DNA of 61,624 bases, the filler included, from Fonticula-like sp. SCN 57-25 (Eukaryota): NCBI GenBank assembly GCA_001724245.1. It is 9 parts of 9 records of this genome, joined end to end, with 100 filler letters (N's around TTAATTAATTAA, not from the genome) between each part and the next. Parts side by side here need not be neighbours in the genome. Positions count along the whole stretch, not along the records: positions 5,151 to 14,799 come from MEDX01000739.1; 8 more parts are not named here. One strand, 5' to 3'. The notes under the pieces are model-generated. The model was not told where the DNA came from and searched no databases. It saw only the letters and a list, made by a program, of their open reading frames with translations. Below are positions 5,051 to 59,856 of the stretch, one piece after another (positions within the stretch are counted from its first letter, which is position 1; each line of letters begins with the position of its first letter). A program made the translations under genes and the position numbers.

Positions 5051-5150
5051 NNNNNNNNNNNNNNNNNNNNNNNNNNNNNNNNNNNNNNNNNNNNTTAATT
5101 AATTAANNNNNNNNNNNNNNNNNNNNNNNNNNNNNNNNNNNNNNNNNNNN
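5051..5150. other. Artificial contig linker (first of eight)
   Basis: 100-nt N run with central TTAATTAATTAA. Also at 14800-14899, 20130-20229, 25318-25417, 34642-34741, 41798-41897, 47234-47333, 53938-54037. Confidence 0.98.
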
Positions 5151-5352
5151 ATGATGAAGAGCAACCTGACAACATTCGTACAAGTACAGTTGCCCCAAAC
5201 CACAGTACTCTGTGCACTCTTCCCTCAACATGACACAGTGCAAGTGCAAAGATTACCAAACAGGATGCGATGCAACAAGCACTATAAGGTGTAATTCCCC
5301 TCTTCTAGTTAGTGAGTTCCTCCCATGTTCCCTCCCTCACGCATGTGTTTTA

Positions 5353-7617
5353 TTATTGCTTTGTAACAGTAGCATTTGAAGTATCTGTAACTGGAAGTGC
5401 TGATCTATTTGCTAGCAGCCCCTGTACCATTACCCTTTGATGGTTATCAATAAATTGCTTGAAGCGTAGTAGCAAGTTATGCTTGTCATCGTTGTCGCTT
5501 CGCAAAATTGCAAACTCGAGTGCAAAAAGATTCGCAAGACGCCTGCTGGGAATACTCACCTTGCGCTCCAACATGGTCTCCAATAATGTCAACGCAAGAT
5601 GGTACTGTTTCTCGTGAATATGTGCGTTAAGCATTGTCAAATAGGAATAGACACTCGGTTGCGATAGTTGCTCAAAAAACTGTTTTGCAGTATCATACTG
5701 TTGTTGCTTCACATAGGCACGAAGTATGTTCTGATTGCTGTACTTTGAGGGTATCACTTGCAGTTGCTGCATCTTGACAAACCAGTCATCCACTTCCTCC
5801 CAACAAGAATTATCCACAAGTTCGTTAATGTAAAAATCAATAGAACTCTGCAACTCTGGAGCACTACTTTTCATGTGGATCAAATGTTCCAGTAGAGCAC
5901 TTGCGATTCCATATTCACGCAACTGGGTGTATACTTGCACCATTTCGCGAACTACAGATTCATCATTCTGTATTCGCTCATCTGTAGCCTCAAACAGTTC
6001 CCTGGCAGTAACATATTCCTTGAGTTCGTTGAGCGCTTTCAAGATTGCACTGTAAAATGATGGATCAACCATGTCCAGTGAGGTAGCCTGAGAAAAGCAT
6101 GCGAGCACACCGTTCCAGTCTTTTTTAGCGATGCAAAGTTGCATTGTAAGAGTGAATGTGGAGAGAGTGTGACCTGTGTGTACTATTAGATCGAGAAGCA
6201 TGGTGCTTGCGCTGGAAATGGCATCAGCTGTAATGCATGCGTGAACAGCTGGAATAATTAGCGTCTCAATGGAAGTTGTGCTATCTTTCTTCTCCAAAAC
6301 CAATTGATGCACAAATTGGCTCAATTCTTGCCATTTATGCTGCTGTATAAAATTCTTCACTCTCAGTTCAACTGATACTTGTTTTCGTTGCTGTTGTTTA
6401 TCCTTGGGGTGTTGCACCAATGCACCTGAAAAGTATTTGGACTCCAATTGCACGATGAAATCTCCAATTGTTGCAGGGTCACTTTGCTCTGATTGAAATA
6501 ATTCTCGCACACAAGCTAACACACGTGGGTCTTCTGAACCCAACTTACATATACGTTCCAGCAGAGCAAGAGTTTTAGTAGTCAATCCAGAACCATCATT
6601 TCTATTACTTATATCTTTTCCATCACTTCTAACAGATTTACCATCACTTTTAACAGATTTACCACTTGAACCAGTGACAGTACCAGTTTCACTACTACCA
6701 GTGGTTTGCAGTAAATATGATCTCACACTCTTTGCAACACTAGGCTTGCGTAACAAGAGTGCACTCACAAAGACAATCAATAATTGCCTCCACGAGAAGG
6801 TTGCCTGAGCAGCAAGTCTTCCCTTTGCATGCATTAGTGCCATTGAGTTCTTCCCCTGAGTTCCAGTGACAGTACCAGCTGCTTTGGTGCCAGTTCTGGT
6901 ACCAGTTACTCTGGTACCAGTAGCATTAGTAAGTGCACCAATACCACCAGTACTCTGCAATTTCCATGCCTGAGCATCCTTGAATAACTTGAGAATAATC
7001 GCAAACTCCATAACCGGCGCGAACGCCTCAATAACCGCACCAAAATCAATTACTGTTAAGAAACTTCGCTTATTTTTGAGTTGCGCAAGGAGAGCCGCGG
7101 ATCGCTCTGGCATGCGCGCCTGGGCGTTCAAATGCAAAAGCGCATGGAGCAGCGTGGCAGTGACGCGACGCGCATCGAGCACCTCGAGACAGGAGAGCAC
7201 CGTGTTCGCCGGTTCGACCATCTTGCGTTCGATTAGCTGCGCGAGGAGATCGCGCACGCGAAGCGCACCGACGCCCTCCCCCTTCAGCAGCTGCGGATGC
7301 ACGGACGCTAGCAGCTCGTACGCTTCGGTGCTCTGGCCAGCGGAGAGCAACTCGGCGAGACGGCGATCCATTTCGCTCTCAGGCAGGGGTTCACTGGTGC
7401 TGTAATGTTGGCGTTGCTGGTGGTGCAGATGGGAATGTTTACCGAAGTGATGGTGGTGCTGACAATGGTAGTTACTGCTGATGTTGGGGAAATGACTGAG
7501 TGTGTTGCATTGGTGCTGGTGCTGATTATTAGCGTGTACTGTGGTTGCTAGTTGTTTGCGTTTGCACCACGGGGAGCAGATTGCGTTCACCCCCCAGCGT
7601 CTGAAAATGGCGCTCAT
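5353..7617 (-). CDS. Pentatricopeptide-repeat-like protein, possibly mitochondrial
   Basis: Long ORF, first ATG 7617. PPR-like helical repeats (PSVYSYLTMLNAHIHEKQYHLALTLLETMLERKV; IDFGAVIEAFA). Basic N-terminus. Confidence 0.65.
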   Translation of the reverse strand: MSAIFRRWGVNAICSPWCKRKQLATTVHANNQHQHQCNTLSHFPNISSNYHCQHHHHFGKHSHLHHQQRQHYSTSEPLPESEMDRRLAELLSAGQSTEAYELLASVHPQLLKGEGVGALRVRDLLAQLIERKMVEPANTVLSCLEVLDARRVTATLLHALLHLNAQARMPERSAALLAQLKNKRSFLTVIDFGAVIEAFAPVMEFAIILKLFKDAQAWKLQSTGGIGALTNATGTRVTGTRTGTKAAGTVTGTQGKNSMALMHAKGRLAAQATFSWRQLLIVFVSALLLRKPSVAKSVRSYLLQTTGSSETGTVTGSSGKSVKSDGKSVRSDGKDISNRNDGSGLTTKTLALLERICKLGSEDPRVLACVRELFQSEQSDPATIGDFIVQLESKYFSGALVQHPKDKQQQRKQVSVELRVKNFIQQHKWQELSQFVHQLVLEKKDSTTSIETLIIPAVHACITADAISSASTMLLDLIVHTGHTLSTFTLTMQLCIAKKDWNGVLACFSQATSLDMVDPSFYSAILKALNELKEYVTARELFEATDERIQNDESVVREMVQVYTQLREYGIASALLEHLIHMKSSAPELQSSIDFYINELVDNSCWEEVDDWFVKMQQLQVIPSKYSNQNILRAYVKQQQYDTAKQFFEQLSQPSVYSYLTMLNAHIHEKQYHLALTLLETMLERKVSIPSRRLANLFALEFAILRSDNDDKHNLLLRFKQFIDNHQRVMVQGLLANRSALPVTDTSNATVTKQ

Positions 7618-7891
7618 TCCTTTTGTCAACCATGGAGTTATGCGTGGTACTTTTTTTTTCACATCCTGCTATCAATTGGTATTCTCAGTGTATGGAACCA
7701 CTACAAATTAACCTTCAAGCACCTTCACTCACAGACCAAAAATGATGTCAACTGTCCACGTAACAAGCGTGATATTTCCATCTCCTCTTGAAGTTGCTAA
7801 TAGGCACTCTGAGATTCTGGTTTCAGTATGATTCTAACATTCCAAGAAACAGGTTCTGAGTCAAAAATATTGACATTTATTTTCGCTCAAT

Positions 7892-9923
7892 ATGACGAGA
7901 TTGGTCCGCACTCGGTTGTCCGCAAACAAGAGTTGTGGAACTGGATTCTCTTTCGACAATTGCATGCGCCGAAACCATCAGTACCAAACAGCTAATGGTC
8001 AGAATCCCCCGGTCATTCCCAATAAACCACAGACCAAATTGTGCGAGAATGACTGCACAAGTGCAGCAACTCTTCGATGCACCACTTGCAGTGCAAATCT
8101 GTGCAACAGTTGCTTCGATGAGACCCACAAGACTAGCTTTCTGAAGCGACATGTCACTCAAGTGCTCGTCCAACATAGCTCGCAACTTGCAAGTCAAGCA
8201 GCATCTCTTGCAAACATGATGGTGTCCAGTAATCAGTCCAAGGACTCGTGTCCCAAGCACCCAAACCAACAACTCAACTTGTATTGCAGCACATGCGATC
8301 TACCATTATGTACAAAGTGCCAAACACACACCAATGAACATGCTTGCCATGTGATTAGCTCCATTGAAGAGTACCTGTCTTCACTGGATCAGGAACTGAA
8401 GCAACTGGAGATTCGATGCAGGTCAGTGGCCTCAGATCTGGAAGTTGTGCAAATGTCAGTCAAGAAGGAGATGACAGAAGCACAAAAGGTATACTTTTTT
8501 TTTCTATTGACTTCGATGCATTTTTACCGCATATCAATGCATTTGAACAGTACTTTTCGGAAATTCAAGCAAAAGTGGATAGAGATTTTCAAGAGTTGAC
8601 CAATGCATTGGTTGCAAGGAAGTCGGAGCTCATTGAGCAACTGGTAAAGATGAAAGAGGAGCAACTTGGTTCCTTGGGTAACAGTATGAAAAATATGGAA
8701 CAGACAGTCAAAAGTTTGCAGGGGAATATGATAACAAGCAAACAACCAGCACAGATACAGTCACAGCCCAGAGCTTTTCCAGTGGTCACTGCTATTGCTG
8801 TTCAGAGTTCATCCATTGCCCAAAAGATACAACAGATTTGTGATGTAAAGAAGCGCAAGCAAACTGTTGCGCAATTGTTGGAATCTGGCGCAAAACTTGC
8901 TATCACTGCAAAGCCATTGAAGGGCAGTTTGATCAAGAGCAACTCGTTAATGTGTTTCCCGGGTGCTGTGTATAAATGTGATGTGAAGGATATCGCAAAA
9001 GTAATCAAGATGAGGACATCAATGGAGAAGGGTGTGCTCTCCTACTCGAGCGATCCAACAGTTGCAGGTGATAATGGGACACAGGTCCCACTCTCACCTC
9101 GAAGTTCAACTGCGTTAGCATCTGCAAAAGTGGATACTCGGCTAAAATCTGTAACTTCTTGCATTAACGCCATTCAAATTCTCAAGTCATGTTACTCCTC
9201 ACAAGATGTTCAAAAGAATGCTTCGAACAATTGCGAGGCAGCTGTTGTGCAAGCAATGCAAACACTTGTAGAACCGTTACTCAATACACAGGAACGATTG
9301 GAGGATAGAACCCAGTGTTGCTCAGCAATAGTGTCACTTGGTGGTGTAGATCTCACAGTATTATTGTTGAAGAAGTATATCAACAATCAGCATGTGGCAC
9401 GTGATGCTACGTATATATTAGGTTACTTGGCCAACAACAATCCTTCTGTCTGTGAACAAATGATCAAGATGGATGGAGTGCAACTAGTCATATCCATTAT
9501 GCGCATGTACTCTGGCGATTTTTCAGTTATGCAAGTAAGTTGTTGCTGAGATTGTGTGAATGTTTTTGTTTGCATATTTTAACAAAATAATTGCGTTCAT
9601 TCACATTCAAGGCTTCATTATTGGCATTGGGACATTTTGCACAGTGTAACGCATTAGCTGACAAGATTTTGAGCCTTGATGGCATTGTGCTTGTCATCTT
9701 GTGCTTAAAATCTTTCAGTAAAGATTGCAGAATTTGTAGCGCAGCAAATTTTGCTCTATACATGCTTGCAAAGTCCAGTGAGTCAATCCGTAGTCATATT
9801 GTTTCACTCGGTGGTGGCGAGCAAATCATGGAAACTCTAAAATCTTTCCCCAGTGATGAAAATTTGACAACAATTGCTGTCCTTGCACTAAACAAGATCT
9901 ACAAGAAGAATAAATATTTGTAA
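7892..9923 (+). CDS. Tandem B-box, coiled-coil and armadillo-repeat protein (3+ exons)
   Basis: B-box1 CENDCTSAATLRCTTCSANLCNSCFDETH, B-box2 CPKHPNQQLNLYCSTCDLPLCTKC..H, heptad region, ARM-like repeats (LGGVDLTVLLLK, MDGVQLVISIM, LGGGEQIMETL). Introns ~8489-8550 and ~9534-9611. Start uncertain. Confidence 0.7.
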
Positions 9924-9958
9924 ATTTTGCATGGGTGTGTGTGTGTACAAGCCTTTCA

Positions 9959-12640
9959 TTAATAAGTCCTCTGTTTGGTGAAATATTGGTCGCTCAGACG
10001 ACTCAAATCCAGCTCCTGTTGCTGTTCTCGTTTTCGTTTAAGTAGATTTGGGTTCTCGTGTAATGAAGGAAATGTAGGCATTATCTNNNNNNNNNNNNNN
10101 NNNNNNNNNNNNNNNNNNNNNNNNNNNNNNNNNNNNNNNNNNNNNNNNNNNNNNNNNNNNNNNNNNNNNNTATCTCCTTGGCGTTAGCAACTGGTTGATC
10201 TGAGAACCATGGATGGTTCAATGCTTCACTCACAGAAACGCGTTGGTTCGGGTCTAAGCACAAGAGGCGTTGAAGCAAATCGAAGCCTGTTTCGCTGAGC
10301 AACGGTTCACCTCCCTTTGATGATTGAAACTTTTTGTGTAACTGGCTTTCTCTAACAGACGGGGAAAAAGATGTTATGTTTCAAGAAAACAGTGATTAGA
10401 TGGTACTCACTTTGGTCCTGAAAAGGAAAATTTTTGTACCGCTGGTAGCATTGAAACACCGGGCCAGTTACGCTCTGTTGGAGCTCCCAGTTCTTGAAAT
10501 ATCAGTTGAATCTGCTCAATTTCTGACTCTCCCCTGAACAGTACTTGTTTCGTCAACATTTCAAAAAATATACAGCCAACAGACCACTGTGAAATGGTTA
10601 GATTTGAGAGAATATGCTTTTCTTCCAGCTATTGAGATTGATTCAACATACCATATCAACAGCAGTGGTATACACACGCGTACCTAACAAGAGTTCTGGT
10701 GCTCTGTACCAAAGAGTAACAACAATAGGGGAATAGGGATGCAATGGTTCGCCGTACAATCTGGCCAAACCAAAGTCACAAATCTTTAGGTTTCCCTTAT
10801 TATCATAGAGTAAATTGGAGCTCTTTAAGTCGCGATGAAGAATCCAATTCTCATGCAAATACTTCACACCTTCCAGCAATTGCCGCACGAGACATTTCAC
10901 CTCACTTTGCGTGAAATGCTTCTGCATATGTTCTGACAAATCCTTGAGTGAGTGATCCACATATTCCATCACCATGAAGATTTTGTCCATGTCACTCCCG
11001 ATCACAATTTCATGCACACGCACAATATTCGGATGTGATAGTTGCAACAAGATGTTCATCTCTCTAAGGGCATTGTGTGGGAAGCCCTCGCGAGTGAGCT
11101 CCTTAATGTTTAGCTTTACTCGCTTGAGCGCAACGATCATCCCTGTCTTGATATGTTTGGCCCTTGCAACTACTCCATAACTACCTTGCCCAATTTGGTT
11201 CAAATGTTCATACTCATCCACAGTTGCACAACTTTTAAATGTTGGCTGCAACAAGCCAGACACAAGGGTCTCTATTGGTGTCGAAGGTGTGTTATATAAT
11301 GCCTTGAGGAAGATCTCCTCAGTAACTAGCTGCTGTAGTTGGGGCGATGATGGTGACGATTTTTTAGGCTGCAATAATGACGGAGTAGCTTCGCTTTTCG
11401 CTATTGCATTCTCCTGTAGGTGTCCTTGTTCCAGTGATGAAGTAGCCACAATTTGCACATCAAAATTGTCCAGATACTGTAGAGGGTTGTAATCCAACTG
11501 CTGCTGACTCCACTTATTGTTGTTCCCCTGGTGCTCCAGCACCTCTCCAGTTGGTGCAAATGAGGCACTCTTCCGTGCAAGAACAGATGCAATCTGGATC
11601 ATGTATTGACACTGAGTGATAGCTGAGACCTGCTGCTGCTGCTTATTCTCTTGCTGCAACTTCAAGAATTTGATCATGTCTCGCATCCCCTTTGCCTCAA
11701 AATCAAAGAAACGCGTGAACACGTAGCGAATGCTGCACCATCGTCGCAAATAGAAGGGGACAGTCTTGTTTGCAACGCTGCACTGACGTGGGAACGTTTT
11801 TCCTGCACCAGGAGAGGGTTAGTGAACAAGGAAAGCATCCCGCAGAGGGTTTGTAATAAATGAAGGAATAATTGTGAGAAAGAGGAGCAAACGAGTAATT
11901 GTGAGAAAAGGGAGCAAAAGGATTAGTGTGAGATGAAAGCAAAAGAGGAGTAATTGTGTGAGAAAGAGGATGAGTGTGAGATGGGAGCAAAAGAATAATT
12001 GTGTGAGAAAGAGGAGCAAAAGAATTGCCAGTTGCTCGACATACCGAGCTCCCAATCGCTGCGCGTCAGGAATAGAACGTTTGAAGTAGTGGGCGCCTCA
12101 TCCATTGCTTGCACAAGCCACGCGGTGAGCAAATCTACAGCAGTTGGGAACAGTGGTGCCCTGTCAATTTGTTCTTGGCTGATTCCTAGTGATGGTGGTT
12201 GTGAAATTAGCAGTGATGAAATGTGGATGTTATTGTGATGATAATAGTAATCATTGCAGTAATGGTTGTTGTTGTCGTTATTGCGATGAGATGTAATTGT
12301 TGTTGTTATTGTGATGAGATGTGATTGTTGTTACGCGAAAGATTCTCTCGCACAAACCTGTATCCGTGGTAAAGCCTCTCGGCAGCTTAGGGTTGTACAG
12401 TGGTCGCACGTGCTGGTGAAATTGAGATACCGTTTCCAGATGCGCTTCAACCGCATACGAGAAGCGAGTGAGCACAGCTGCAATCTCCACAATCTCGGTG
12501 ACAAACGACTTGGTGGTCTCTCGCTCCTCAAACGTTGTCTCAAAATCGATGACGCACAGGAATTTGTACTTGTTCATGTTTTTCAGTTGACTTGGATCGA
12601 TAAAATCGCTGGAAGTCCACAGAGCAACCCTGTTGACCAT
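9959..12640 (-). CDS. ERI1-like DEDDh exonuclease domain fused to CDK10/CDK11-like kinase (spliced)
   Basis: Exons 12640-12358, 12185-12045, 11802-10652, 10586-10411, ~10352-9959 splice in frame at GT-AG. N-part [27 protein letters not shown]. Kinase [34 protein letters not shown]-terminal MPTFP. Confidence 0.8.
11863..12022. repeat. Degenerate minisatellite inside intron 2 of the kinase gene
   Basis: Repeated TAATTGTG(TG)AGAAAGAGGAGCAAA-like units. Confidence 0.7.
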
Positions 12641-12908
12641 GATTTTACAGCACTGTCTACACTGTTATATGCCTCTGTTCAATAGTTTATGGATTGTGAT
12701 TTGCACTCGTTGCTGGTAATCTTGCACACCCACTCCTCGTTGCATCAGTTTCATGTTTTGTGTTATGTAATCGATTGCACGTCCTTGTTGTGCAGTATTC
12801 TTATGTCACAATTAACCACCAATGCCTTGTTCCATGCTGCATGGAGCACTTTTGAACTGGAAGCAGCAGCATTCAAGTCAACTCGCTGGTCCAGCTTGAA
12901 GTGCGAGC

Positions 12909-14799
12909 ATGAGTTCAACCACTAGGCCAGCATATCAGCGAAACTATGAGGAAGAGGGAGACGATGTTCAATTTGAGCTTACAGAGTCTGACATCAATGT
13001 GAAACTCATTGGTACACTGGAGGAATTGAGCCACGATATCAGGATCAACAACAACAGTGATGACAATTTTAACATTGAAAATCACAGAATCAACAATTTC
13101 CACAACATTCAAAATCACAGAATTAACAATTCCCACAACATTGAAAATCACGCTAGTAATTCCAATAACAACAGAGGCAATAGAATAGTTGGTAGAGGGG
13201 GAGAGAGTATAGTCTACTACGGAGCTGCCAATGGGGTGGAGCAAGAGAGAGATAAAAATCCGTACTTCAAGATTCCGAAGCGACCGACAAGCGAGCAGCT
13301 GCTCTGGCTCCTCACGTTAGCGCGGAACGAGTGGTGGCTCCTGATTGTCGGTTCCGTCGCCCTCATCGCGTCCAGCGCGGTCACCCTGCTCCTCCCGAAC
13401 TACGTGGGTACGGTCATCGATGGCCTCCTGACCGGTCGGCTCCACTTGCCCTCCCTGCTGCTCAGCTTTCTTGTCCTGGTTGTGCTCATCGCGGTGACCT
13501 CCCTCGTGAAGCAGGTGTGCTACACAGTAGCCGGGGAGCGTGTGGTCGCCAGGTTGCGCAAGACCCTGTTTGCCAGCATGCTTGTGCAGGATATTGCCTT
13601 CTTTGATGTCACAAGCACCGGAGAGCTCATCAACCGTCTCTCCTCCGATACAAAGGCTCTTGAGAGTGCAGTTACCTCCAATCTGGCACAGGCGATTCGT
13701 CAGTTGCTCCAGGCTCTCGGTGGCGTGGCGATTCTCCTCTATCTGAGCTGGAAGTTGAGTCTCTTGATGCTTGCTGTTATCCCCCCGTTGACCGTAGGTG
13801 TGGTGGTCTACGGGATCTACGTAAAGTCTCTGGGACGAAAGGTGCAAGATATGCTTGCGAGGGCATCTGAGGTGGCACAGGAGTCGCTCGGAAACATTCG
13901 CACTGTGAGATCCTTTGCACAGGAGGGGAGACACAAGCGCATGTATGACACTGTTATTGATGAGTCCTACGCATTAGCAAAGAGATTAGCATTCATTGGT
14001 GGAACATTCCACTCAGGGGTCATGTTTATTGGCAACTTATCACTCCTCGGTGTGATAGCCTTTGGTGCATATCTTGTACAGGATAATCAGATGACTGTTG
14101 GGGCATTGACCAGTTTCCTCATTTACACCTTCTTTGTCGCCACGGCAGTGGGCATTCTCTCGATTTTGTATTTTGACATTGTGAAAGCCCTAGGCGCAAC
14201 TGAGCGTGTTCACTCTCTCATCTCTAGAAAACCGAACATTACCTGCGATTCAGGAACAGGTGAAACTTTGGAATCGGTCACTGGTCTCATTGAGTTCAAG
14301 CAACTGTCGTTTGCGTATCCATCACGCCCGAATAATCCGGTGCTCAGCAATTTTGACTTGCATCTTTCACCGGGTGAGGTTGTTGCGCTTGTTGGTCAGT
14401 CAGGTGGTGGTAAATCTACCATTGCAACCCTGTTGCAGCGCTTCTACGATCCAGATCATGGTAACATTCAATTAGATGGTATCGATATCCGAGATTTGGA
14501 CATTATGTGGTATCGTGGGTTGATTGGTTGTGTGTCACAAGAGCGTAAGTCAAATTTTTCTTCATTTGTTAACCATCTCACGGTGATCTCATTACATGTC
14601 CAATCACTTAGCTGCACTATTTGGAACATCTATTCGTGAGAATATTGCATATGCAAATGAAGCTACAGAGGAACAAATAATACAGGCAGCAACAGAGGCC
14701 AATGCCCATCAATTCATCACCCAATTCAATGAAGGTTACGATACACAAGTAGGGGAACGAGGTGTGCGATTGAGCTCTGGTCAGAAACAGAGGATTGCA
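12909..14799 (+). CDS. ABCB-type half transporter (ABCB10/TAP-like), 3' truncated
   Basis: TMD ([18 protein letters not shown]), Walker [13 protein letters not shown] restored by intron 14546-14610, signature variant [10 protein letters not shown]. Confidence 0.9.
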
Positions 14800-14899
14800 N
14801 NNNNNNNNNNNNNNNNNNNNNNNNNNNNNNNNNNNNNNNNNNNTTAATTAATTAANNNNNNNNNNNNNNNNNNNNNNNNNNNNNNNNNNNNNNNNNNNN

Positions 14900-17471: not shown

Positions 17472-20129
17472 TCAAGCATCAAGCGACGAAAGCTTGGCGC
17501 TGATAAGCGAAGCAGTAGGGCGGCTAGTGGGCTCGAAAGCCAAGGCGGCCTGAATCAAGCTCGACAGCGAAAGCGGCAGGTCAATCATGTCATGCGCATC
17601 CAAAACCAGAGACTTGCCGCTCAGTACAGCGTTGCGGACCGACTCGTCCGGCAGCGCGCTCCACGGCGCATTGCCAGATGCAAGCTCGTGCAGCACCACA
17701 CCAAGCGAGTAGACGTCCGAGGCGAGCTCCATAGGAACCGCGCAATCAACCGTGCTGCCGTCCCGTGCTGCCAGCAGCACTTCGGGCGCAGCGTAGCGCA
17801 CGTTAACGATGCGCGGCGGCATGTACGACACACCGTCGTCGGCCGCCGAGCGCGCCTGGCTAAAGCCGCCGAGCACCGCCGTGTACAGGAGCGACTCGCC
17901 GCTCGGCTCCTCGAGGAAAATGTTGGCCGACTGAATGTTGCGGTGCACGATGGACAGCGAGTGCATCGCGCTGATGGCAGAGGCAACATTCGACGCGAGC
18001 TGGTGCAGCTGTTTGGCCGGCATGGGACGCGGCGTCTCCTGGACAAAGCGCCCAAGGGTGTAGTGGAAAGCGCGCGTCATCACAGCCCGCGGCTCGTCCG
18101 TGTAGGCCAGGATGCTCACAATGTTGGGGTGGAACGAGAGCGACCACATGATTGACACTTCGTGGTGGAAACGCTCGTCGTTCTCGGCCGCAGTGAGGAG
18201 CGCAACGTCGTGGTAGTTGCGCATCACGACATGCGTGGAGCCGGCCCGCTTGGCCACGGTCGGGTCAAGGACGGTCGCGTGGTACTCGGAATCGCCCGCG
18301 TCAGAGTCCACAGGCTTGCCAGGCTGCACCGTCGTCGCGTAATCAACAAGCAAAAAGCCCGGCAGCGCAACCTCTAAGGTCGTGTTCACAACCGTCTTGT
18401 CTGCATCCCACAAGTGGATCGTCGAGTTTGCGTGGCTCATGCTGCTCCGTGATTGGGCAATCGAGCTGCGATACTCCTTCAGAGCAACCATCGCATCTGA
18501 TCCGCCAAACTCATCCAGCTGCTTGTTTGTCGCCTTTTGGCGGCGGCGCATGACCACGATAACAATGATGACAACCACGATAAGCACCACAACGGCAGCG
18601 GCGCTCGCGGCCGCAATCACAGTCCCGCTCGTGCCAAGGCCCGGGTCCTCAACGACGTTGTCCGTCGACGACTTGGTCGTCACAACCAGCCGCGCGCCAA
18701 CCTGCTCCGTCTCATTGCCCTTGCCCGCAAGCACAAGCACCTCGTACGAGCCGCCTGCTTCCAGACCCGTCACCTCGACCGACCCCGTAGACGAGTCCAC
18801 CTGCTTGAACAAATCAAAACCATCCGTCACGGCGCGCGCGTCCTTCGTCGACCGCGTGTACACGGCGTAAAACTCGGCGAGCGCCGACGGCGTCCAGCTC
18901 AACTTTAACGATGACGTGGTTGACTCGTCCAGCTTCAGGCCCGTCGCCGGCGAAATATACGTCGTAGTAGAGAAGATTGAGCCCGACGCGTCGTTGTAGC
19001 CCCACTGCACGTCGCCCATCGTGATACGGAAGTAGTAGAATGTGTCCGGCGACAGACCGCGGATCACAATACGCGTCTCCGTAAAACCAACAGCCGCTGA
19101 AAAACACTACAGCGTCAGCACCGCCGCAATAAAGTATCAGGTTGCGCGGCGCACAGTTCGAGTTGGCGATAACGTAGTTGTGGTCGCCCGACGACACCTC
19201 GGCGCGGAACGTCGAGTTTGCCGTCATGTTGACCGCGTTCCAGCTCAGCGTCACATCCGTCGATGTCTTGCTCACGAGCGTCAGGTTGTACACTTGGTCC
19301 TCGCTAGAAATGGGAACTGTAAACGCGCAGGATGAGAACAACACATCATACACAACGCTTTCATACCATAAACGCAGGCATTGCTGTACGACGCTTCCCA
19401 TGTGCCGTTCTCCAGGCACTCGCGCGTCGGCGGACCAGCCGCAGACTCGGTATAGCCGTAGCCGCACGACCCGACGCTGCTCGTTCCGGGCTCCGCCTCG
19501 GGGAAGTACACGCCCTCCAGACCCTCGTTCGGGCAGTTGTCATACTTGATGCGGCACGGGTCCATCACAGTCGCGTTCCATGCACCCGTCATCAGGCAAG
19601 CGCGACGCGGCACGCCCGTCAGACCGCTCAGGCACGTGCCATACCCAACGTCACCGGCGCGCGTCTCGACCCAGTCGGCGTTGTCCGCGAGACCCGCAGG
19701 GCACGTCACCGCTGTGCACGGGGAAAAGATGGGACCCCAGGCGCCCGTCGCAGAACACTCGCGCGTCGGCGACCCAATGTAGCCAGCAATGCACGTGCCA
19801 TGCATAGGGACGCTCGGCGCCGACGACTCGGGCCAGTCAGCGCCCTCCTCTTCCAGCGCCGCGCACTTGATCGCAACACACGGGTTCATCACGTCACCCC
19901 ACTGACCGGTGATCGAGCACTCGCGCGAAGGGCTGCCCGCGAAGCCAGTGTCACATGTGCCCGGGGTCGCGCTGCCGGCAGGCGTCGCGGGCCAGTTCAC
20001 GTTGCCAAATGACTGCGCAGCGCATGTGATCACGGTGCACGAGCCGATAATGTCGGTCCACGATCCGTCCAAATTGCAGTTCCGTAAAGGCGAGCCCGTC
20101 GTGCCCGCCGGGCAAGTTCCAGGAACATT
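17472..20129 (-). CDS. Receptor-type pseudokinase with Cys-rich repeats, FN3 domains and one TM (5' truncated, spliced)
   Basis: Repeats WPxTxAG..GTC..G..G.PxRxC..GxW..C, FN3 motifs (LSW..GL.P.T.Y), TM AAAVVVLIVVVIIVIVVM-RRR, kinase fold with HRN, GFS and YAAPE. Confidence 0.8.
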
Positions 20130-20229
20130 NNNNNNNNNNNNNNNNNNNNNNNNNNNNNNNNNNNNNNNNNNNNTTAATTAATTAANNNNNNNNNNNNNNN
20201 NNNNNNNNNNNNNNNNNNNNNNNNNNNNN

Positions 20230-21453
20230 AATGACAAAAATAACGGTAATGGATTAGCACTACTAAGTGCAATACTGGATCAATACGCGACTAATATGGA
20301 ACCTGTATATGCGAAGCGCTTCCAAAGCTATCTGGTCGATATTACTAGTCCGCAACAAGTTATTCTCTATAATGATTTGTTTGAATACTTGTACCAATCA
20401 GTGAGCAGACCCGAAGCTGATTTACCCTCTCAATTTATTCGCAGTATGTTTACCGACTCAGGGCTCGGAATTTGGCATGATGATGAATGCTTCCCCAAGA
20501 ACGAAGGAGTTAGACGAATCATGTACTGCGAAATGGTGAACCAATTAGAACAAGTGAAGCTCGATGAAGGATCCTTGCGTCGTAAAGATATCCAAAAGCT
20601 GTTTCTCTTCTCTCCAGACCCCAAGATGGCAATGCTGGAGAAGAAAAGACAAAAGGAGTCCTTGGTGCGAGAAATAGTGAGAAGACTGGTACTCACAACC
20701 CGGAGAGCAGGNAAGAAAAGACAAAAGGAGTCCTTGGTGCGAGAAATAGTGAGAAGACTGGTACTCACAACCCGGAGAGCAGGAACAGTACGAAGAATCC
20801 AGGAACCTGATTTGCAATACTTTAAAATCCCTATTTTCACTCTGGAATATACAAAGCTCCCATCTATTGATGTTCACCACGAGGATTGTCATGTTATTGA
20901 AGCCACCAGCGCAGATCTCTCGAATATGATTCATAAGGATGTACCGGAACATGTGACTCTAAAGCACAAGGATGATTCAGTGGCCATAGTACCCAAACAC
21001 GATACAACTCGTTCATCATTTGACCTTGTTCTGTATTTGCCATCAAAGAAGCATGTCTACTTGTTCAAAATCGTTAACATACCAGTGTTTGGAAATATCA
21101 ATATTAACATCAAAGAGAACGTGCATATCGAGGGTATGACGACTGAAGTGGTCTTCCTAGCAGTCCAACATGGCCACCTAGTTACCAAAGGAAATACAAT
21201 CCAACCAATTTTTGCCTACCAACCTGTACAAGCTTCCATTTCGTTTGTGGAAGATTACTTTTGGAATGACATGCACATGATTACGCGAACATTCAGAAGA
21301 TTGGAAGAGGCGTACAAGGAGCTGGAAGAAATGAAAGTTGGAAAGAATGAACTGGATTTCATGGGCGAGGACCTGTCAGGCGTGAGGCAGAAGATTGGGC
21401 TTACCAAGGGTTCTCGAGAAGCCATCCGATGGCAATTTGGGTCCGAAGACTAG
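20230..21453 (+). CDS. Hypothetical protein, frame open from contig start
   Basis: Over 380 codons with no stop. Includes an artefactual duplication around the N at 20712. No family recognised with confidence. Confidence 0.55.
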   Translation, partial: NDKNNGNGLALLSAILDQYATNMEPVYAKRFQSYLVDITSPQQVILYNDLFEYLYQSVSRPEADLPSQFIRSMFTDSGLGIWHDDECFPKNEGVRRIMYCEMVNQLEQVKLDEGSLRRKDIQKLFLFSPDPKMAMLEKKRQKESLVREIVRRLVLTTRRAXKKRQKESLVREIVRRLVLTTRRAGTVRRIQEPDLQYFKIPIFTLEYTKLPSIDVHHEDCHVIEATSADLSNMIHKDVPEHVTLKHKDDSVAIVPKHDTTRSSFDLVLYLPSKKHVYLFKIVNIPVFGNININIKENVHIEGMTTEVVFLAVQHGHLVTKGNTIQPIFAYQPVQASISFVEDYFWNDMHMITRTFRRLEEAYKELEEMKVGKNELDFMGEDLSGVRQKIGLTKGSREAIRWQFGSED

Positions 21454-25317: not shown

Positions 25318-25449
25318 NNNNNNNNNNNNNNNNNNNNNNNNNNNNNNNNNNNNNNNNNNNNTTAATTAATTAANNNNNNNNNNNNNNNNNNNNNNNNNNN
25401 NNNNNNNNNNNNNNNNNGCGCTAGTCACACATGCTGTGCAGCGAGTACG

Positions 25450-34641: not shown

Positions 34642-34864
34642 NNNNNNNNNNNNNNNNNNNNNNNNNNNNNNNNNNNNNNNNNNNNTTAATTAATTAANNN
34701 NNNNNNNNNNNNNNNNNNNNNNNNNNNNNNNNNNNNNNNNNATTCAGATTCAGCGACGCAAACTGCATTGCCTTATTGCAAAACATCATTTTCACAGGGC
34801 TGTGGCAACACTGAGCATTTGGCCCGAAGGAGCCTCACTTTGCTTTTCCAACCTGACACGCAGT

Positions 34865-41797: not shown

Positions 41798-42202
41798 NNN
41801 NNNNNNNNNNNNNNNNNNNNNNNNNNNNNNNNNNNNNNNNNTTAATTAATTAANNNNNNNNNNNNNNNNNNNNNNNNNNNNNNNNNNNNNNNNNNNNTTG
41901 CCGCCTCGCCGCCTGCCGCTCATGATGTGTGTTTGGTCCGAGTCAAGTCAGGAAATGAGAACCCTACCGATCACACTGCCCCTCGAGTAATCGATGGAGC
42001 TGCTGTGCATGCACTTTCCATGAGAATCGATGGCGCGTGTAACTGCGCTTGCGTGATCGTCTGTGCGCTTGGCACCGGCGTTGTTGCCTAATTTACCTGC
42101 GCATTATTGATCTTCACGCCATCTTTCAAGATCCCTTCGCCTCTCGGGCATTTAATGTAGGGTCCTTGGAGTGTGCCAGGGGGTGCTCAGTGTGCACCGT
42201 GA

Positions 42203-47021: not shown

Positions 47022-47333
47022 ATGTCACCATTGCTGGGATGCCGCGAGCGCCGATGACGCGGCCGAGCTTCGGCCTTCCAGGACACGCTTTTGATTTGCA
47101 CGAGCCCGTCCCTCGTCGCCCACAGATTGCGCATGAAATTTTGACTGATGGTGTGGAAGTCGAAGCAGAGTTTCTGAAACCCACCATCGCCGTCCAGAGA
47201 GACGAACGATCGGCGCTGCAACGCGAACTGAGCNNNNNNNNNNNNNNNNNNNNNNNNNNNNNNNNNNNNNNNNNNNNTTAATTAATTAANNNNNNNNNNN
47301 NNNNNNNNNNNNNNNNNNNNNNNNNNNNNNNNN

Positions 47334-53310: not shown

Positions 53311-54541
53311 AGCTGGCGGGCGAAAGTCAAAAAAATCAAGCGAATCGACGCGAGCCGACGGGAGACCGCACGGCCGCTACTTACCATGTATTTCTGTGCT
53401 CTCTGAAAAGAAATAAAAAAAACAATTTTGAACTCGATGCCGCATGGCATCATGCCTCATGCCTCGCATCGCATCGCATCGCCCGTGAGCGAGGTGGCGG
53501 GAAACTGATGTGTGATGACAGCCTTAGGGTGGGGATGAGCTGCTACCCCGAGCTCACCAATCAAGACTGGTGGGACCAAAGTGGACAGTGTGGCCAGCCA
53601 ATCATATTCTAACGCCGTACGCTGCCGTACGCTGAAGGGGGGGGGGTACAAGGTTGCGCACGACCCAACCCATAAAAGGAAATTTTGCCAGCCGTAGAGC
53701 GCTATCGCCGCAGAACAGGGGGGGGGTTCACCAAGGAACTACCTTATAGGCACAACAGCAAGCCGTCTTTATTGTGAACTGCGTCGTCAGGCATATATGG
53801 CGAACGCGCACTTCCCTCTCGTCAGCGCGGCCTCTTTCCTCGCCGCAGGCATTGCTCGCCACTTTCGAGGCGGCGCTGCTTCAAGATCTTGTCATTGCCA
53901 AGACTTTCGACGTTTCATTCGAGCGCTGGCAAGCTGCNNNNNNNNNNNNNNNNNNNNNNNNNNNNNNNNNNNNNNNNNNNNTTAATTAATTAANNNNNNN
54001 NNNNNNNNNNNNNNNNNNNNNNNNNNNNNNNNNNNNNTCGCGGAGCTGTTTGCAATGAACATCAAGGTGGACTTGCGTGTGTTATAGCGCGGGGCAAGTG
54101 GGGTCGCATTTGGATACTAGTCATTTTCAACATTCTTTCTTTTCTTTTATGGTCTCTTTATGTGCGCGCGCAGACGATGAATGTGTACAAAATTTGACGC
54201 GTGTAATGGACATATTTCACACATGAACAAACTTCTGAACAAACACATTGACAAGCTGAGCTTATATAACTAAAGTGGGCCACAGTAACACTGAAATTTC
54301 GTTAAATTGATTGGCTAGTATTATGGCAACATTATGATGTGAAGAGGGACTCGGCCCTCTGCCCTTTTGTGCAAAACAACCAAGAACGAAATCGAGAGAA
54401 AGAAGATTGAGAAAAAGGATTAGCAAAAGAAAATATGGAAAAAAAGATATTGGAGAACAAAGGCACGGAGCCCAGACGCCGCCGTTGCGCACGATGCGCC
54501 GTGGAAAAGGCGGGCGACGAATAAGTTAATAAGGAGGGACG

Positions 54542-57500
54542 TTAATTCCCGCGCGAGGATGACGCAGCGTGCATCTGCCCGTCGCTGTCTCCGTCCTCCT
54601 CCTCGTACTCGTCGTCGTACTCGTCGTCGTCCGACTCTTCGTCGCCCTCGAGCGCGGCCTCCTCGACGAGGCTGTCGAGCATCGCCGCGCCGCAGACGCG
54701 CACGGCGACCGTGTCTGCCTCGGCGACGGCGTCGGCGCCGAGCATGTGGATGACGTAGTCTGGCGGCAGCGCGTAGGGCGGTGGGCGGACGCGCCTGGCG
54801 TACGACTCCGGAGGGCACACCGGCGGCGGCACCGCAGCGATACCCGCGTGCTCGGCGGCAAACTCGACGTAGTTGAGCGTGGCGAGTGCCGGGGCGGTCG
54901 CCTTGCGGTGGACGAGGAAGAGCGCCATGGCGACCGAGCCGAGCAGCATGACGCCGCCGAGCGCGATGAGGACGATGAGCCACGGCGGGAAGACGAAGGG
55001 CAGCGGCGCGGCGGCGTCGGAGGGAGCGGGCGGCACGGCCACGTTCTGGAGGACCACAAAGTCGGAGAGGTGGGTCGTGAGGCACTGCGCGCTACGGCTG
55101 TCGGCGCGGAGAAGGGAGACGCCTTCCTGTGACCACGTGCCAGAGTCATAGTCGAGGTACGCGCACACGAGGCGCGCGGGGTCGATATTGTCCGCGGCGT
55201 CAAACTCGAAGCGAATCTCGACGGTGTGGCCGCCAAGGTCGGAAATGTAGTCGCGGCCGTTGTCGTCAAGAACGCCGAGGCGAGTGCTGCGAGAGCAGTC
55301 GCGCAGCGCCATCGTGTGGACATTGCCGTCGCTCGGCTGCCAGCGCGTCGCGTTGCCGGCGCCAGAGGTGTCGTACAGCGGGTCGTCGGTGCGCGAAAGG
55401 ATGCGCGCAAAGAGGGCGCGCGCGGCGTTGCCGACAGTGCTAGCGACGTTCGTCTGATTGCCGCCCTCGAGCTTGATCTCGGACGGCGGAGGAACATTCG
55501 CGTACACGGTCGTGTCAATGTCGAGCGAGCTCGCGCAGAGGCACGTGGCGGCGGAGCCGTCGGGGCGCGCGACGCCAAAGGTATCGGGGAAGGTGAAGCT
55601 GCTCACGGCGTGGCCGCCGTCGAGGCGATCGCGGCTGGCCGTGAACGAGATGATGGCGCCGCGCACCGTCGAGGGGCTCTGACGGCACGCCTGGCCGGTC
55701 TGGTACAGCTGCGCGCCAACATCGAGCGCCTGCCAGAACAGCTTGAGGTCGTCCACGGTCGTCTCGGGGCGCGCGAGCAGCACATTCTCTTCAGCGCGAA
55801 GAAGGCAGCCCATAAAGTCATCGGGCATCACCATGCCGTACGTCATCGAGCTGTTGAATGCAACGACTTCGCCGAGAAGGCGCACGAGAAGGGCGGCCGA
55901 CTTTTCAGCGGGGAGGCTCGCCGACGCCTCGGAGAGGGTGCTGAGGACGCACACCTTGCGCATGACGTCGTTGGCGGTCGGCGGGATGCGGTTGCCGGCG
56001 CTGTCGACGGCAGAGTCGAGCGACTGCAAAAAGTCAGACACTTGCGAGGCAATCGCAGAGCGCGGCGACACGGCGGTGTTGACAGTGGTATCAGCGGGGG
56101 CGACGACACTGCGCGCGTAGAGGTCCGAGGACGAAGTGCCGTTGAGGCGGTCGTTGGAGACGGCGAGGCACCCGACAAAGTTGGCCGCGAGGATCTGGAG
56201 GTCGCGCCAGCGGCCGAGCAGGTAGAGCTCTGACGAGCGCCTTCCAAACTCGTTCTCGAGCACGTTGAGGCTGGCCGTATCGGTGACAGTGCACGGCTCG
56301 ACGATGATGACCTGCTCGACAAAGCTCATAGCGCCGTTCTTTTGAATGATGCGGGCAATGACGCGGATGACGTTACCGTGAGTCGGGTTGGGCATGGTCG
56401 TGTTGAGGAGACCGGGGCGCTGCGAAGTAGCCTCGACAAAGCCGTCCTCGCTGTAGTACATGCGGATCGAGTACGTGAGCGGCAGCTGGCTCTCCTGGGC
56501 GGACCAGCCGGGCAGCGAGATGATAAAGTCGTCAAAGACGGCGCGGCCGGACGCCGGCGCAATAACAAGAGAGCCGCCGAGCGGGATGCTCGAGGTGACC
56601 ACCTGCAGCGTGCAGTACGCGACCTGCTCGCCGCGCGTGCCGTTCACGACCGCAAAGATCTCGAGGCGGAACTGGTACACGGAGTTGGGCAGCAGCACCT
56701 CGGGGCGCAGCAGAAGGCCGTCCTCCGAGTTGGGCGGGCCGTTCAGCAAGTTCGGGTTGCTCAGGTCGACCGTCGACAGCGAAATGTTGTTGAAGCCGAG
56801 CGCGCGCGTCGTGCCCTCGAGCGACGTCCACAGGAACTCGTACGTCGCGTTCGGGAGCAGCGAGAGGAGCGCAGAGATGGCCAGCGGGCGCGTCACGACA
56901 AAGTCGGTCGGGTCGGTGCTGCCCGTGTCGAGCAGCGCGTACGGCAGCGGCCCCTGGCGCACCTCGATGACGACAAAGTCGGTCAGGTGCACGAGGCCGG
57001 CGTCCTGCTCGGTCGCGCGGACCTCAAAGTGGTACAGCATGCGCTCGGGGTCGGCGATCAGCTGGAAGGCCTCAAAGTTGGCAAACTCAAAGAGCTGCGG
57101 GACGGGCGACGCGTCCGTCGTGACGTTGCGGATGAACTGAGGCTCAAAGGCAATGATCCTGAGCGGGTCGTTCGGGTCGAGGACGAGGCACGAGTTGGTC
57201 GACGCGAGCGGCGCAACGTTGGTGCAGCTCAGGCGGAGGTCGACGACGCGGCCGCCGAGGCCCGACGGGTCAAGGAGGCTCACATCAATGGTCAGAGCGG
57301 ACGCCTCGCCGATCGAGCGCCATCCACCACCGAGCACGCGAAGGCGGAGCGGCGGCGGCAGCACGTCAATCACAATCGTGTACTGGCCGCTGAGCGACGG
57401 CGTGTCGATAGAGTGCACCGTCACGGTGACGTTGTACTGCGTGCGCGGCGTGAGCGAGTTGCGCGGGAACAGCACCGACGCGGCGTGCTCCTGGCCGGCA

Positions 57501-59856
57501 AGCGCAGGGATCTCGGGCGTCGCCGTCCAGGTAAAGTTGAACGTGGCGTTGGACGGCGCGCACGGCGCCAGCGTCACGAGCGGCGTCAGCTCCGTCTCCT
57601 CGGACGAGACGACACGCAGCGGCGACGGCGCAAAGATGACCACCGTCGGGATGCCCGCGGGCACAACCTCCACCGTAACTGAAGCAGGCTCGGAGGAAAC
57701 ACCAAGGTAGTTTGTCACGACGAGCGTGATGGTGTACGTCGTGATCTCGAGCGAGTCGGCCGGGAACGTGAACGACGACACGTTGCCCGCCTTGAGCGAC
57801 TCGAGCACCGCGAGCGCCGCGGCCGACGTCGGCTCGGGCGTGATCGTCCAGTTGTAGACAAGGTCGTGGCCACCGCCGCCAGTCGAAAAGGCGGCAGACA
57901 CCTCAAGCTCGGCGCACTGCGAGATCGCCTGCGGCGCCGTGATGACGGCCACCGGAAGCGGCGGGTTCAGCGGCGGGTCCACAAGCACCGGCGTGATCAG
58001 CGGGTCGCAGAACTCGCGGCCAAACTCGCGCAGCGTGTCATTCAAAAAGTAGAGATAGTCGCCGGGGCGCAGCGTCGAGTCGTGGCCCTAGCGGGTGAAC
58101 AGTCAGTCATGAACATCGCAACGATCAAGTGCGTACCAGAGAGATGGTGAGGAGGTCGCCGGCGGTAAAGACGCACGACGGGTTGGTGCCGAGCGTGTCG
58201 ATGGTCGCGGCCGTGAGTACCGCCTGGCACGTGGCGAGGCTGTCGGGGAGCGTGGTGACCGAGACTTGGTCGATGGCGAGCGACGCGTTAAAGGTGGCGC
58301 GGACGCCGTTGCCCTCGTCGAGGAAGCGCGCCGAGAGTGCGATGGGCGCATACTGGTAGTAGTGGACCTCGAGGAAGTTGGTGAAGGGCCCGCTGGTGCC
58401 GCTAAAGGAGAGCGACAGGTGCGCCTTTTGCGACACGGCGGTCTCGGGTACCGGGCAGACGACGGTCGTGTCGTTGTAGATGACGCCGGTCTCATAGCGC
58501 GTGACGTTCTCGCGCTGCATCTCGTAGCGACAGGTGACGCTCGTCTCGTTGCTGCCGTTGCTGATGGCCTCGAGCGTGGCGGTGCCGACAAAGTGCGTGC
58601 CGGGGACGATGATCTCCTGGCCAGCCGTGTCAATGTACACCTTGATGGTGTCGTTGCCGACGCCCGCGGTGCCGTTGTCGTAGACGAGGTAGTCGAGCGG
58701 GCCGAGGATCGTCCCGTCGATGCTCAGGAAAAAGTCCTTGATGCCGAGCGAGCTAAAGGCGTTCAGGTCGCACGACGCCTCACCGGGGTCGATGACGGAC
58801 GCGGGGACGGACGTGTTGAACATGTCCTCGACAATGCACTCGAGCGTGCGCGGCGTGCCGTCGGGGTGCTGGAAGCCCGCGCCAATAACGTGCACGTTAT
58901 AGTCGGTGACGTTGGGGCCAGAGTCCGGCACGATGCGGATAAAGGCAAAGCACGTCGTCTGGTTGCCGTCGCACACGCCGCACAGGTCGTACACCTTGCC
59001 AGAGTTGGGCACGCCGTCGCAGCCCTCGCAGGTCGAATTGTCGCCAAAGCAGATGCCGCACAGGTCGCGACCGGCGTTGGTCGGAAGGCCGGTCTCGCCG
59101 CCGACGCAAAGGCCGCACGAGTTGTTGCGCGCATTGCCAAAGCAGGTTCCGTGACAGTCAGCAGAGGGCGAGGGGCCGTCGGAGGGCGGGCCGCAAACGT
59201 CGCACTCGTCGCGCACGTAGGGGCGCTCGCGGCAAACGTCGTCGCAGCCGACCGTGCAGGCGGGGGTCGTCGTCTCGGGGCGCGTCGTCGTCGTCGCGGT
59301 GGCAGTGGCCGTCGCGCTTGACGTCAGAGTAGGGAGGACAATAGAGGCGCGCTGGAAGAGGCGAAGGTAGGGTGCCTCGGCGGACGCGTCGTCCGCACTA
59401 GCACCGCCGGCAACGTCGCCCTCCTCATCGTCGAGGATGCGCAGCAGAGCGGAGCTCGTGAAGCCCTTGGCGTGCAGATGGAGCAGCACGGTGCGCGAGC
59501 CATCGTTCCAAAAGTTATCAAAGAGACTCACCGGGACGGAGATGGCATCTTGGCCGGCTTCAAAGTGAAGCTCCGACTTTACGCCGCGATAGTCAAAACC
59601 GTCGACGGCGGTGCCCTCGGCCGTCGAAAAGACTACCGAGAGGCGATCGGAGAGCGCGCCACTGCGCCGCACCTCCACCAAGGCAGAGCCCGCATTCTCA
59701 TAAACTTCGTACGTTCGTTGCGAAAAGGAAACACCTAATCGATGAAAAAGGGTTAACATTTCGCAGGTAAGCACGACGCAAGCACGCACCATCCAAGGCG
59801 TGGGCCGTGAGCGCCAGCCATACTAGGCAGGCGATCGCCGCCGCCGTCCACCTCAT
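54542..59856 (-). CDS. Single-pass adhesion receptor: signal peptide, Calx-beta, Cys-rich repeats, IPT-like, REJ, GAIN/GPS, TM, PPxY tail
   Basis: Exons 59856-59790, 59734-58137 and 58087-54542 splice in frame. MRWTAAAIACLVWLALTAHA signal, GTAVDGFDY Calx-beta, DxCGxCxG repeats, GPS CAYLD..WSQEG..CLTTHLSDF, one TM. Confidence 0.85.

Follow-up and report, generated by a model that had tools for sequence, protein, structure and literature searches.

Does a single gene encode both an RNA exonuclease fold and a cyclin-dependent kinase (CDK)? The question is raised by a minus-strand locus (positions 12640-9959) in a stretch of 61,624 nucleotides (nt), here called the window, from assembly GCA_001724245.1 of Fonticula-like sp. 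SCN 57-25. An earlier note on this DNA had proposed an in-frame fusion of an ERI1-like, probably inactive exonuclease to a CDK10/11-like kinase. We find that architecture, an ERI1-family domain, a linker and a CDK10/11-like kinase in one reading frame, and we consider it probable that the locus as a whole is a single gene for a pseudo-exonuclease, a linker and a CDK11-type kinase. The gene lies in the piece at 5151-14799 (MEDX01000739.1), to which its true neighbours are confined.

Gene structure and transcription

The gene has five exons in one reading frame, separated by four GT..AG introns (Table 1), and runs from an ATG at 12638-12640 to a TAA at 9959-9961, so that the end coordinates given in the earlier note are exact. 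Exons 1 to 3 join to 1575 nt with a remainder of 0. The spliced frame comprises 644 residues up to the edge of an assembly gap at 10170 and a 41-residue tail after the gap, to the TAA, and the product is roughly 690 residues long. The two introns that had been placed in the ERI-like part have exact GT..AG ends and keep the frame; the two introns in the kinase part and the gap, which is 84 N long, were absent from the earlier note.

One public run, a sludge metatranscriptome (X1, word share 0.08), covers part of the gene. Two of its RNA contigs, each of 151 nt, match with 0 mismatches, over 12357-12543 in exon 1 and over 12092-12184 in exon 2, the latter joined to exon 1. In one of the two, the 172 nt of intron 1 are missing, with CT..AC at the boundaries when read on the plus strand. 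This shows transcription and splicing in the ERI-like part. Within the interval 11300-12400, which had been singled out for an RNA check, intron 1 is seen spliced, and coverage stops at 12092, short of the domain junction; of the intron pair in the ERI-like part, intron 1 is confirmed in this way and intron 2 is a sequence prediction.

Intron 2 has the same donor, GTATGT, as intron 3, which is validated by kinase homology. It also carries a branch-like site, CACTAAC, about 20 nt upstream of its CAG acceptor, together with a pyrimidine tract, and its retention would bring in an in-frame stop at 11923. Tandem repeats are found in both introns of the ERI part (11866-12015, periods 27/48, and 12269-12332, period 28), with 65-91% agreement between the copies of a repeat. 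Removal of intron 3 restores the kinase motif DMWSVGC (the intron falls between DM and W) and the continuity of the profile from 180 to 181, and on removal of intron 4 the Pkinase profile resumes at 229-263 in exon 5.

An ERI1-like domain at the N-terminus

The exonuclease-like domain, of the ERI1 family (DEDDh type), is encoded by the first two exons and about 85 codons at the start of exon 3. When exon 1 (94 amino acids, aa) was compared with PDB, all four matches were ERI1 (E 6e-5 to 1e-4), and its residues 24-86 align to residues 8-64 of a 204-residue ERI1 nuclease construct with the ExoI D-x-E conserved. For exon 1, the alignment to DEDDh nucleases on which the earlier note had staked its proposal is present. 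Exon 1 matches Pfam RNase_T (PF00929) at E 0.0011 with 19.9 bits, the cut-off being 24 bits; a score under the cut-off is to be expected, since exon 1 is one third of the domain. In Atlas, 23 of 30 feature matches of exon 1 belong to the RNase_T set, which serves as a lead only.

At the other end of the domain, an alignment was obtained between the opening 85 residues of exon 3 and residues 133-212 of 216 of ERI3 in PDB, at E 0.41 with the linker included (the top two of four matches) and at E 0.12 without it. Exon 2 (46 aa) gave no relevant match in PDB, only four P450-like ones at E 0.74-1, and neither exon 2 nor the start of exon 3 matched RNase_T in Pfam up to E 10; Atlas, queried with the C-terminal piece of the ERI domain plus linker, yielded nothing usable. 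Exon 2 has a codon bias of 0.247 in frame vs -0.21/-0.23 off-frame. Taken piece by piece, then, by these searches it is the exon 1 match alone that is significant. The ERI-family assignment appears sound nonetheless: the matches of two independent pieces converge on one small family, their order and their placement at the two ends of the domain are as expected, and a spliced in-frame exon connects them.

ERI1 itself has an N-terminal SAP RNA-binding domain (PMC7544206), unlike the protein described here: there is no SAP match in Pfam and just 23 residues precede the nuclease core. There is no room for another exon upstream, since the ATG of the divergent neighbour is 269 nt away.

State of the nuclease active site

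Three of the five catalytic positions (D-E-D-H-D) that characterize the DEDDh family are changed, which sets this domain apart from ERI1 and ERI3. The ExoI residues D32 and E34 are kept (DFE at aa 32-34), as had been claimed. The ExoII position reads SDWEL (aa 137-141), also as claimed, and comparison with the Trp-Asp pair of ERI1 (Asp234) would place Glu140 at the catalytic ExoII Asp. The proposed replacement of the ExoIII H..D segment is borne out as well: aa 196-206 hold neither His nor Asp, and where ERI3 has its ExoIII His and, five residues further, its Asp, the aligned residue is Gln in both cases, beside a three-residue insertion. The spliced translation, independently of any alignment, has no His between aa 78 and 231. 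A DEDDy-type centre, which follows the rule Tyr-x3-Asp, was considered for Tyr208, the one Tyr close by, and rejected, there being no Asp four residues on.

Activity in DEDDh enzymes depends crucially on five fully conserved residues, among which the His is the general base (PMC10899777), and the ERI1 double mutant D134A+E136A has lost its exonuclease activity (PMC7544206). In view of these requirements and of the changed ExoII and ExoIII residues, the N-terminal nuclease domain is very likely to be catalytically dead, and the inactivity suspected earlier gains support.

Might the fusion be real and the ERI-like domain have kept 3'-5' exonuclease activity through an unorthodox centre, which would make the protein a bifunctional nuclease-kinase? 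The intact ExoI D/E would allow it, as would a metal-binding Glu at ExoII, and the ExoIII alignment is a weak one (E 0.12-0.41) that contains the three-residue insertion. Such an enzyme would, however, have to work with no His in aa 78-231, no Asp in the segment facing the His-to-Asp stretch of ERI3, a Tyr208 that lacks the Asp of the DEDDy rule, and without residues that are fully conserved and crucial in its family. We regard this possibility as improbable.

A CDK11-type kinase

The kinase part of exon 3 matches Pfam Pkinase at E 4.6e-52, and exons 4 and 5 complete the profile. Its best PDB match, by a wide margin, is human CDK11B (246 bits, E 1.5e-72), followed by CDK13/12 (169/168 bits) and CDK1/2/5 (about 160). 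CDK10 is absent among the 60 PDB matches listed, and that search does not separate CDK10 from CDK11; CDK11 is preferred over CDK10 because of the PITSLRE-rich neighbours and the long N-terminal extensions of the best matches. Judged by these matches, the kinase is CDK11-type, which refines the CDK10/11-like label it had been given.

Relatives were taken from a HMMER search of 1.84 billion representatives, which returned 685,177 proteins at E <= 0.001 and of which the best 150 were analysed. Like CDK11 (human CDK11B p110, which works with cyclin L and SAP30BP), the kinase has all catalytic motifs intact (G-loop, VALK Lys, alpha-C Glu, HRD, DFG and APE), an N-terminal extension of similar length (335 aa) and a C-terminal motif of the MPT(F/W)P type. 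The last reads MPTFP here; of the 150 relatives listed, 12 carry MPTFP and 33 carry FPTWP. The kinase should be active, with an unusual cyclin-binding helix. Unlike CDK11, it has a three-residue insertion before the alpha-C helix and, as previously read, PHNALRE (aa 383-389) in place of PITSLRE. Exact PITSLRE occurs in 61 of the 150 and most others have P[ILVM]T[SA]LRE, while PHNALRE occurs in one, P0001, which is the open reading frame (ORF) of the window itself. The T-loop also differs: Ser499 stands where, of the 100 listed relatives with a recognisable T-loop, 98 have Thr and 2 have Ser. A Ser at this position can still be phosphorylated. In human CDK11B, T595 is the activating phospho-site (PMC13324802).

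One gene or two

The claim that the last third of the ERI domain shares an uninterrupted ORF with the kinase holds: a stop-to-stop ORF at 10643-11818 (391 aa) takes in the C-terminal piece of the ERI domain, the linker and 187 residues from the start of the kinase. The linker, of about 110 residues, is Q/S/P-rich (45% Q+S+P+T+N, 15% charged, no Met). Over its 111 codons there are 0 stops in the joining frame vs 3 and 7 in the other frames, and the frame stays open in 30 of 20,000 shuffles. Codon bias per codon in frame is 0.200 in the linker and 0.198 in the kinase, with the linker at -0.30/-0.27 off-frame; in frame, exon 1 has 0.136, exon 2 has 0.247 and the ERI portion of exon 3 has 0.143, with negative values off-frame. 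Within the ERI part there are Met residues at 181, 184 and 209; the next Met, at 363, comes after the G-loop at 346. Since there is no Met between 209 and 363, a separate kinase protein would need a start inside the ERI domain. On this evidence a single fused gene is quite likely, and we infer a single full-length mRNA.

The locus might instead yield two products, with the kinase made mainly from an internal start at Met181, 184 or 209 (through an internal promoter or internal initiation) and the upstream ERI-like exons being the decaying remnant, without a stop, of a neighbouring gene, used as a 5' leader or in a minor long isoform. The three in-frame Met just ahead of the linker would suit such a scheme, the loss of catalytic residues in the ERI domain is what a decaying gene would show, tight packing (269 nt between ATGs, 35 nt between stops) favours read-through fusions, and the domain junction is without RNA cover. 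A decaying remnant would not be expected to keep frame, splice phase and codon bias over some 225 codons in three exons, though, nor to have an intron that is actually spliced in RNA, and the short form would start within the last helices of the ERI fold. We think two products unlikely.

That assembly merged two genes, one ERI-like and one for a CDK11, which belong to different loci or to different organisms, seems to us highly improbable. It is true that the window consists of short contigs joined by N44-TTAATTAATTAA-N44, that the gene's own piece contains the 84-N gap, and that the assembly is fragmented and possibly environmental, its sequence being matched by a sludge metatranscriptome only. 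Both domains, however, lie within 10171-14799, a stretch without any N; a join would sit within an open, codon-biased frame; and the two sides resemble each other in GC content and codon bias. In addition, 4 contigs, of up to 10,697 nt, are on record with the ORF that leads from Met181 through the C-terminal ERI helices to the kinase, which argues against a one-off chimera.

The gap itself (10087-10170) is inside the last exon and has the same 5 bases on both flanks. When it is closed on these shared bases, the reading frame is restored and the spacing from the kinase end to MPT(F/W)PS becomes that of the CDK11-like protein P0036. It looks like overlapping contig ends left unmerged, and would be a scaffolding artefact or a small hidden intron rather than missing coding sequence.

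Several points weigh against a single gene for a dead exonuclease and a CDK11-type kinase. RNA cover in run X1 is confined to 12092-12543, outside intron 2, the linker and the kinase. RNase_T stays under its cut-off on the sole fragment that matched it, exon 1, and the joined domain was scored in fragments only; exon 2 alone is without detectable similarity in PDB or Pfam; and the match of exon 3 to ERI3 is not significant alone, being equalled, in the search without the linker, by an unrelated repeat protein (E 0.1, three weak repeats). The Asp-to-Glu call at ExoII comes from the family motif, in a segment outside any tool alignment, and a Glu can still bind metal. No relative with the architecture was found, and a young or accidental fusion would look alike. 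Finally, RNA binding and cyclin binding are predictions only.

Search for the same architecture

The best 150 proteins include P0001, which is 100% identical to the window's ORF and starts at Met181; the others match the kinase, at 32-67% identity. Pfam was run on 20 of the 150, picked for long N-termini or for alignments extending into the linker, and found Pkinase in 20 and RNase_T in 0. A filter-free phmmer search with the spliced N-terminal 335 residues against the 150 returned P0001 only, the rest being at E >= 1.4. Two proteins, P0036 and P0102, gave longer alignments into the linker, which were rejected as homology: their N-termini are charged, of low complexity and without a Pfam domain. 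A word-index search, which requires shared 5-mers, gave 19 candidates among longer proteins for exon 1, none of which scored. For exon 3 residues 1-196, it gave 289 candidates among proteins of similar length, with the own ORF as the one that scored, and 556 among longer proteins, with none. Metagenome contigs scanned with exon 1 yielded 143 pattern matches and one locus, L001, on an 8.1-kb, prokaryote-like contig; this locus was rejected because the 35 matching residues, at L001 4858-4968, lie in a short frame on the strand opposite a 368-aa ORF, and their likeness is put down to chance.

A search of the literature on CDK11 and CDK domain architecture with an exonuclease, and on ERI1 pseudonucleases, found no description of such a protein. 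There is thus no second example of the architecture in the sequences searched, which means that it was not seen and not that it is absent, and the earlier note's failure to recognise it agrees with this outcome. The fusion is probably real and lineage-restricted.

A possible role for the fused domain

What might a dead exonuclease do on a CDK? The CDK11 N-terminal extension is highly charged, of low complexity and disordered (PMC13324802). In this protein the pseudo-exonuclease fold, followed by a Q/S/P-rich linker, would take the place of that extension, and the N-terminal charged fraction is 0.20 vs a median of 0.36 (range 0.16-0.56) in 111 of the listed relatives. Through the dead nuclease the protein could dock to RNA 3' ends or to a ribonucleoprotein (RNP) or protein partner, with the linker as a flexible, low-complexity tether. 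The kinase would pair with an L-type cyclin through its variant alpha-C helix, PHNALRE, phosphorylation of the T-loop Ser would switch it on, and docking would bring it to substrates in RNA processing or transcription.

An RNA-binding or RNP-targeting role is plausible by analogy with ERI1 biology and with other pseudo-exonucleases. In human PML-1, the PXL domain keeps 1 of 4 DEDD residues, is inactive and binds G-rich RNA/DNA, and its closest structural relative, Drosophila Exuperantia (Exu), also binds nucleic acids (PMC13659232). As in these two proteins, the locus would provide an exonuclease fold that has no working catalytic residues and is attached to a protein of other function. Theirs, in contrast, is an EXO-SAM arrangement, non-ERI by sequence and without a kinase, and binding here is putative. 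ERI1 acts on histone mRNA, 5.8S ribosomal RNA (rRNA) and small RNAs, and in its known roles depends on the SAP domain as well as on nuclease activity (PMC7544206). CDK11 has a controlling part in the activation of the spliceosome, in transcription and in the expression of replication-dependent histone genes (PMC13324802). The thematic overlap between the substrates of ERI1 and the splicing and histone roles of CDK11 is suggestive.

One could go further and imagine that the dead ERI pocket grips a defined RNA 3' end, such as a histone-mRNA-like stem-loop, a small nuclear RNA or the 5.8S rRNA tail, and so places the kinase on that RNP or activates it there allosterically. We consider this doubtful. 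Were it true, RNA 3'-end recognition and CDK signalling would be linked covalently, replacing the adaptor proteins used by animals. In the Pan2-Pan3 deadenylase, a DEDDh exonuclease fold and a protein-kinase fold meet in one RNA 3'-end machine. There the nuclease is active, the kinase is dead and the two are separate polypeptides, so that the fusion would be reversed in polarity and covalently joined. ScPan2 is listed as a DEDDh enzyme (PMC10899777).

For now the observation, as a single instance, carries limited weight. To our knowledge, the way in which the long disordered N-terminus of CDK11 directs targeting is poorly defined. A natural variant with a folded domain derived from an RNA enzyme may offer a simple model for the targeting of transcription and splicing CDKs, and would extend the short list of DEDD pseudo-exonucleases co-opted as binding modules by one that is linked to a kinase.

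Genomic context

Gene spacing in the 5151-14799 piece is very tight. The probable fusion gene is flanked by a divergent ABC transporter gene and by a convergent gene for a B-box protein, beyond which lies a gene for a PPR protein (Table 1). The last ORF of the B-box neighbour has its stop 35 nt from that of the fusion gene, so the 3' untranslated regions of the two must overlap. In that neighbour, two B-box zinc fingers are encoded first, and the long ORFs after them gave no Pfam match.

Table 1. Positions of the probable fusion gene, its parts, its neighbours and other features of the window
Feature	Position	Strand	Remarks
Exon 1	12358-12640	minus	first third of ERI1-like domain; ExoI D32-x-E34 at 12539-12547
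Intron 1	12186-12357	minus	172 nt, GT..AG, 28-nt tandem repeat; RNA-confirmed
Exon 2	12045-12185	minus	middle of ERI1-like domain; SDWEL at 12046-12060
Intron 2	11803-12044	minus	242 nt, GTATGT...CACTAAC...CAG; predicted
Exon 3, start	11546-11802	minus	last third of ERI1-like domain; ExoIII position 11609-11641
Linker	11231-11545	minus	about aa 226-335, Q/S/P/T/N-rich
Exon 3, rest	10652-11230	minus	kinase N-lobe and most of C-lobe
G-loop	11168-11191	minus	kinase motif
VALK	11117-11134	minus	kinase motif
PHNALRE	11060-11080	minus	kinase motif
HRDLKSSN	10814-10837	minus	kinase motif
DFG	10760-10777	minus	kinase motif
T-loop Ser499	within 10694-10735	minus
Intron 3	10587-10651	minus	65 nt, GTATGT..CAG
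Exon 4	10411-10586	minus	kinase C-lobe, Pkinase profile 181-227
Intron 4	10352-10410	minus	59 nt, GTGAGT..TAG
Exon 5, before gap	10171-10351	minus	kinase domain end, Pkinase profile 229-263
Exon 5, after gap	9959-10086	minus	C-terminal tail with MPTFP; stop TAA 9959-9961
PPR protein	5353-7668	minus	neighbour, same piece
B-box protein	7874-9923	plus	convergent neighbour, same piece
ABC transporter	from about 12909	plus	divergent neighbour, same piece
Genes on other contigs	17472-19106, 19281-20129, 54542-58087, 58125-59822	minus (all)	fn3 + tyrosine-kinase-like / HRM (family-2 G-protein-coupled receptor hormone-receptor) / REJ / Calx-beta
Spacers	5051-5150, 14800-14899, 20130-20229, 25318-25417, 34642-34741, 41798-41897, 47234-47333, 53938-54037		N44-TTAATTAATTAA-N44

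The window strings together nine separate contigs by means of eight spacers, each of 44 N, TTAATTAATTAA and 44 N, and genes on different pieces are for that reason not shown to be neighbours or to belong to one organism. GC content across the window ranges from 0.41 to 0.66. The other contigs encode a protein with fn3 and tyrosine-kinase-like parts and proteins with HRM, REJ and Calx-beta domains, a set typical of animals and their unicellular relatives. Lone N bases are found at 20712 and 28188, where the surrounding sequence is clean.

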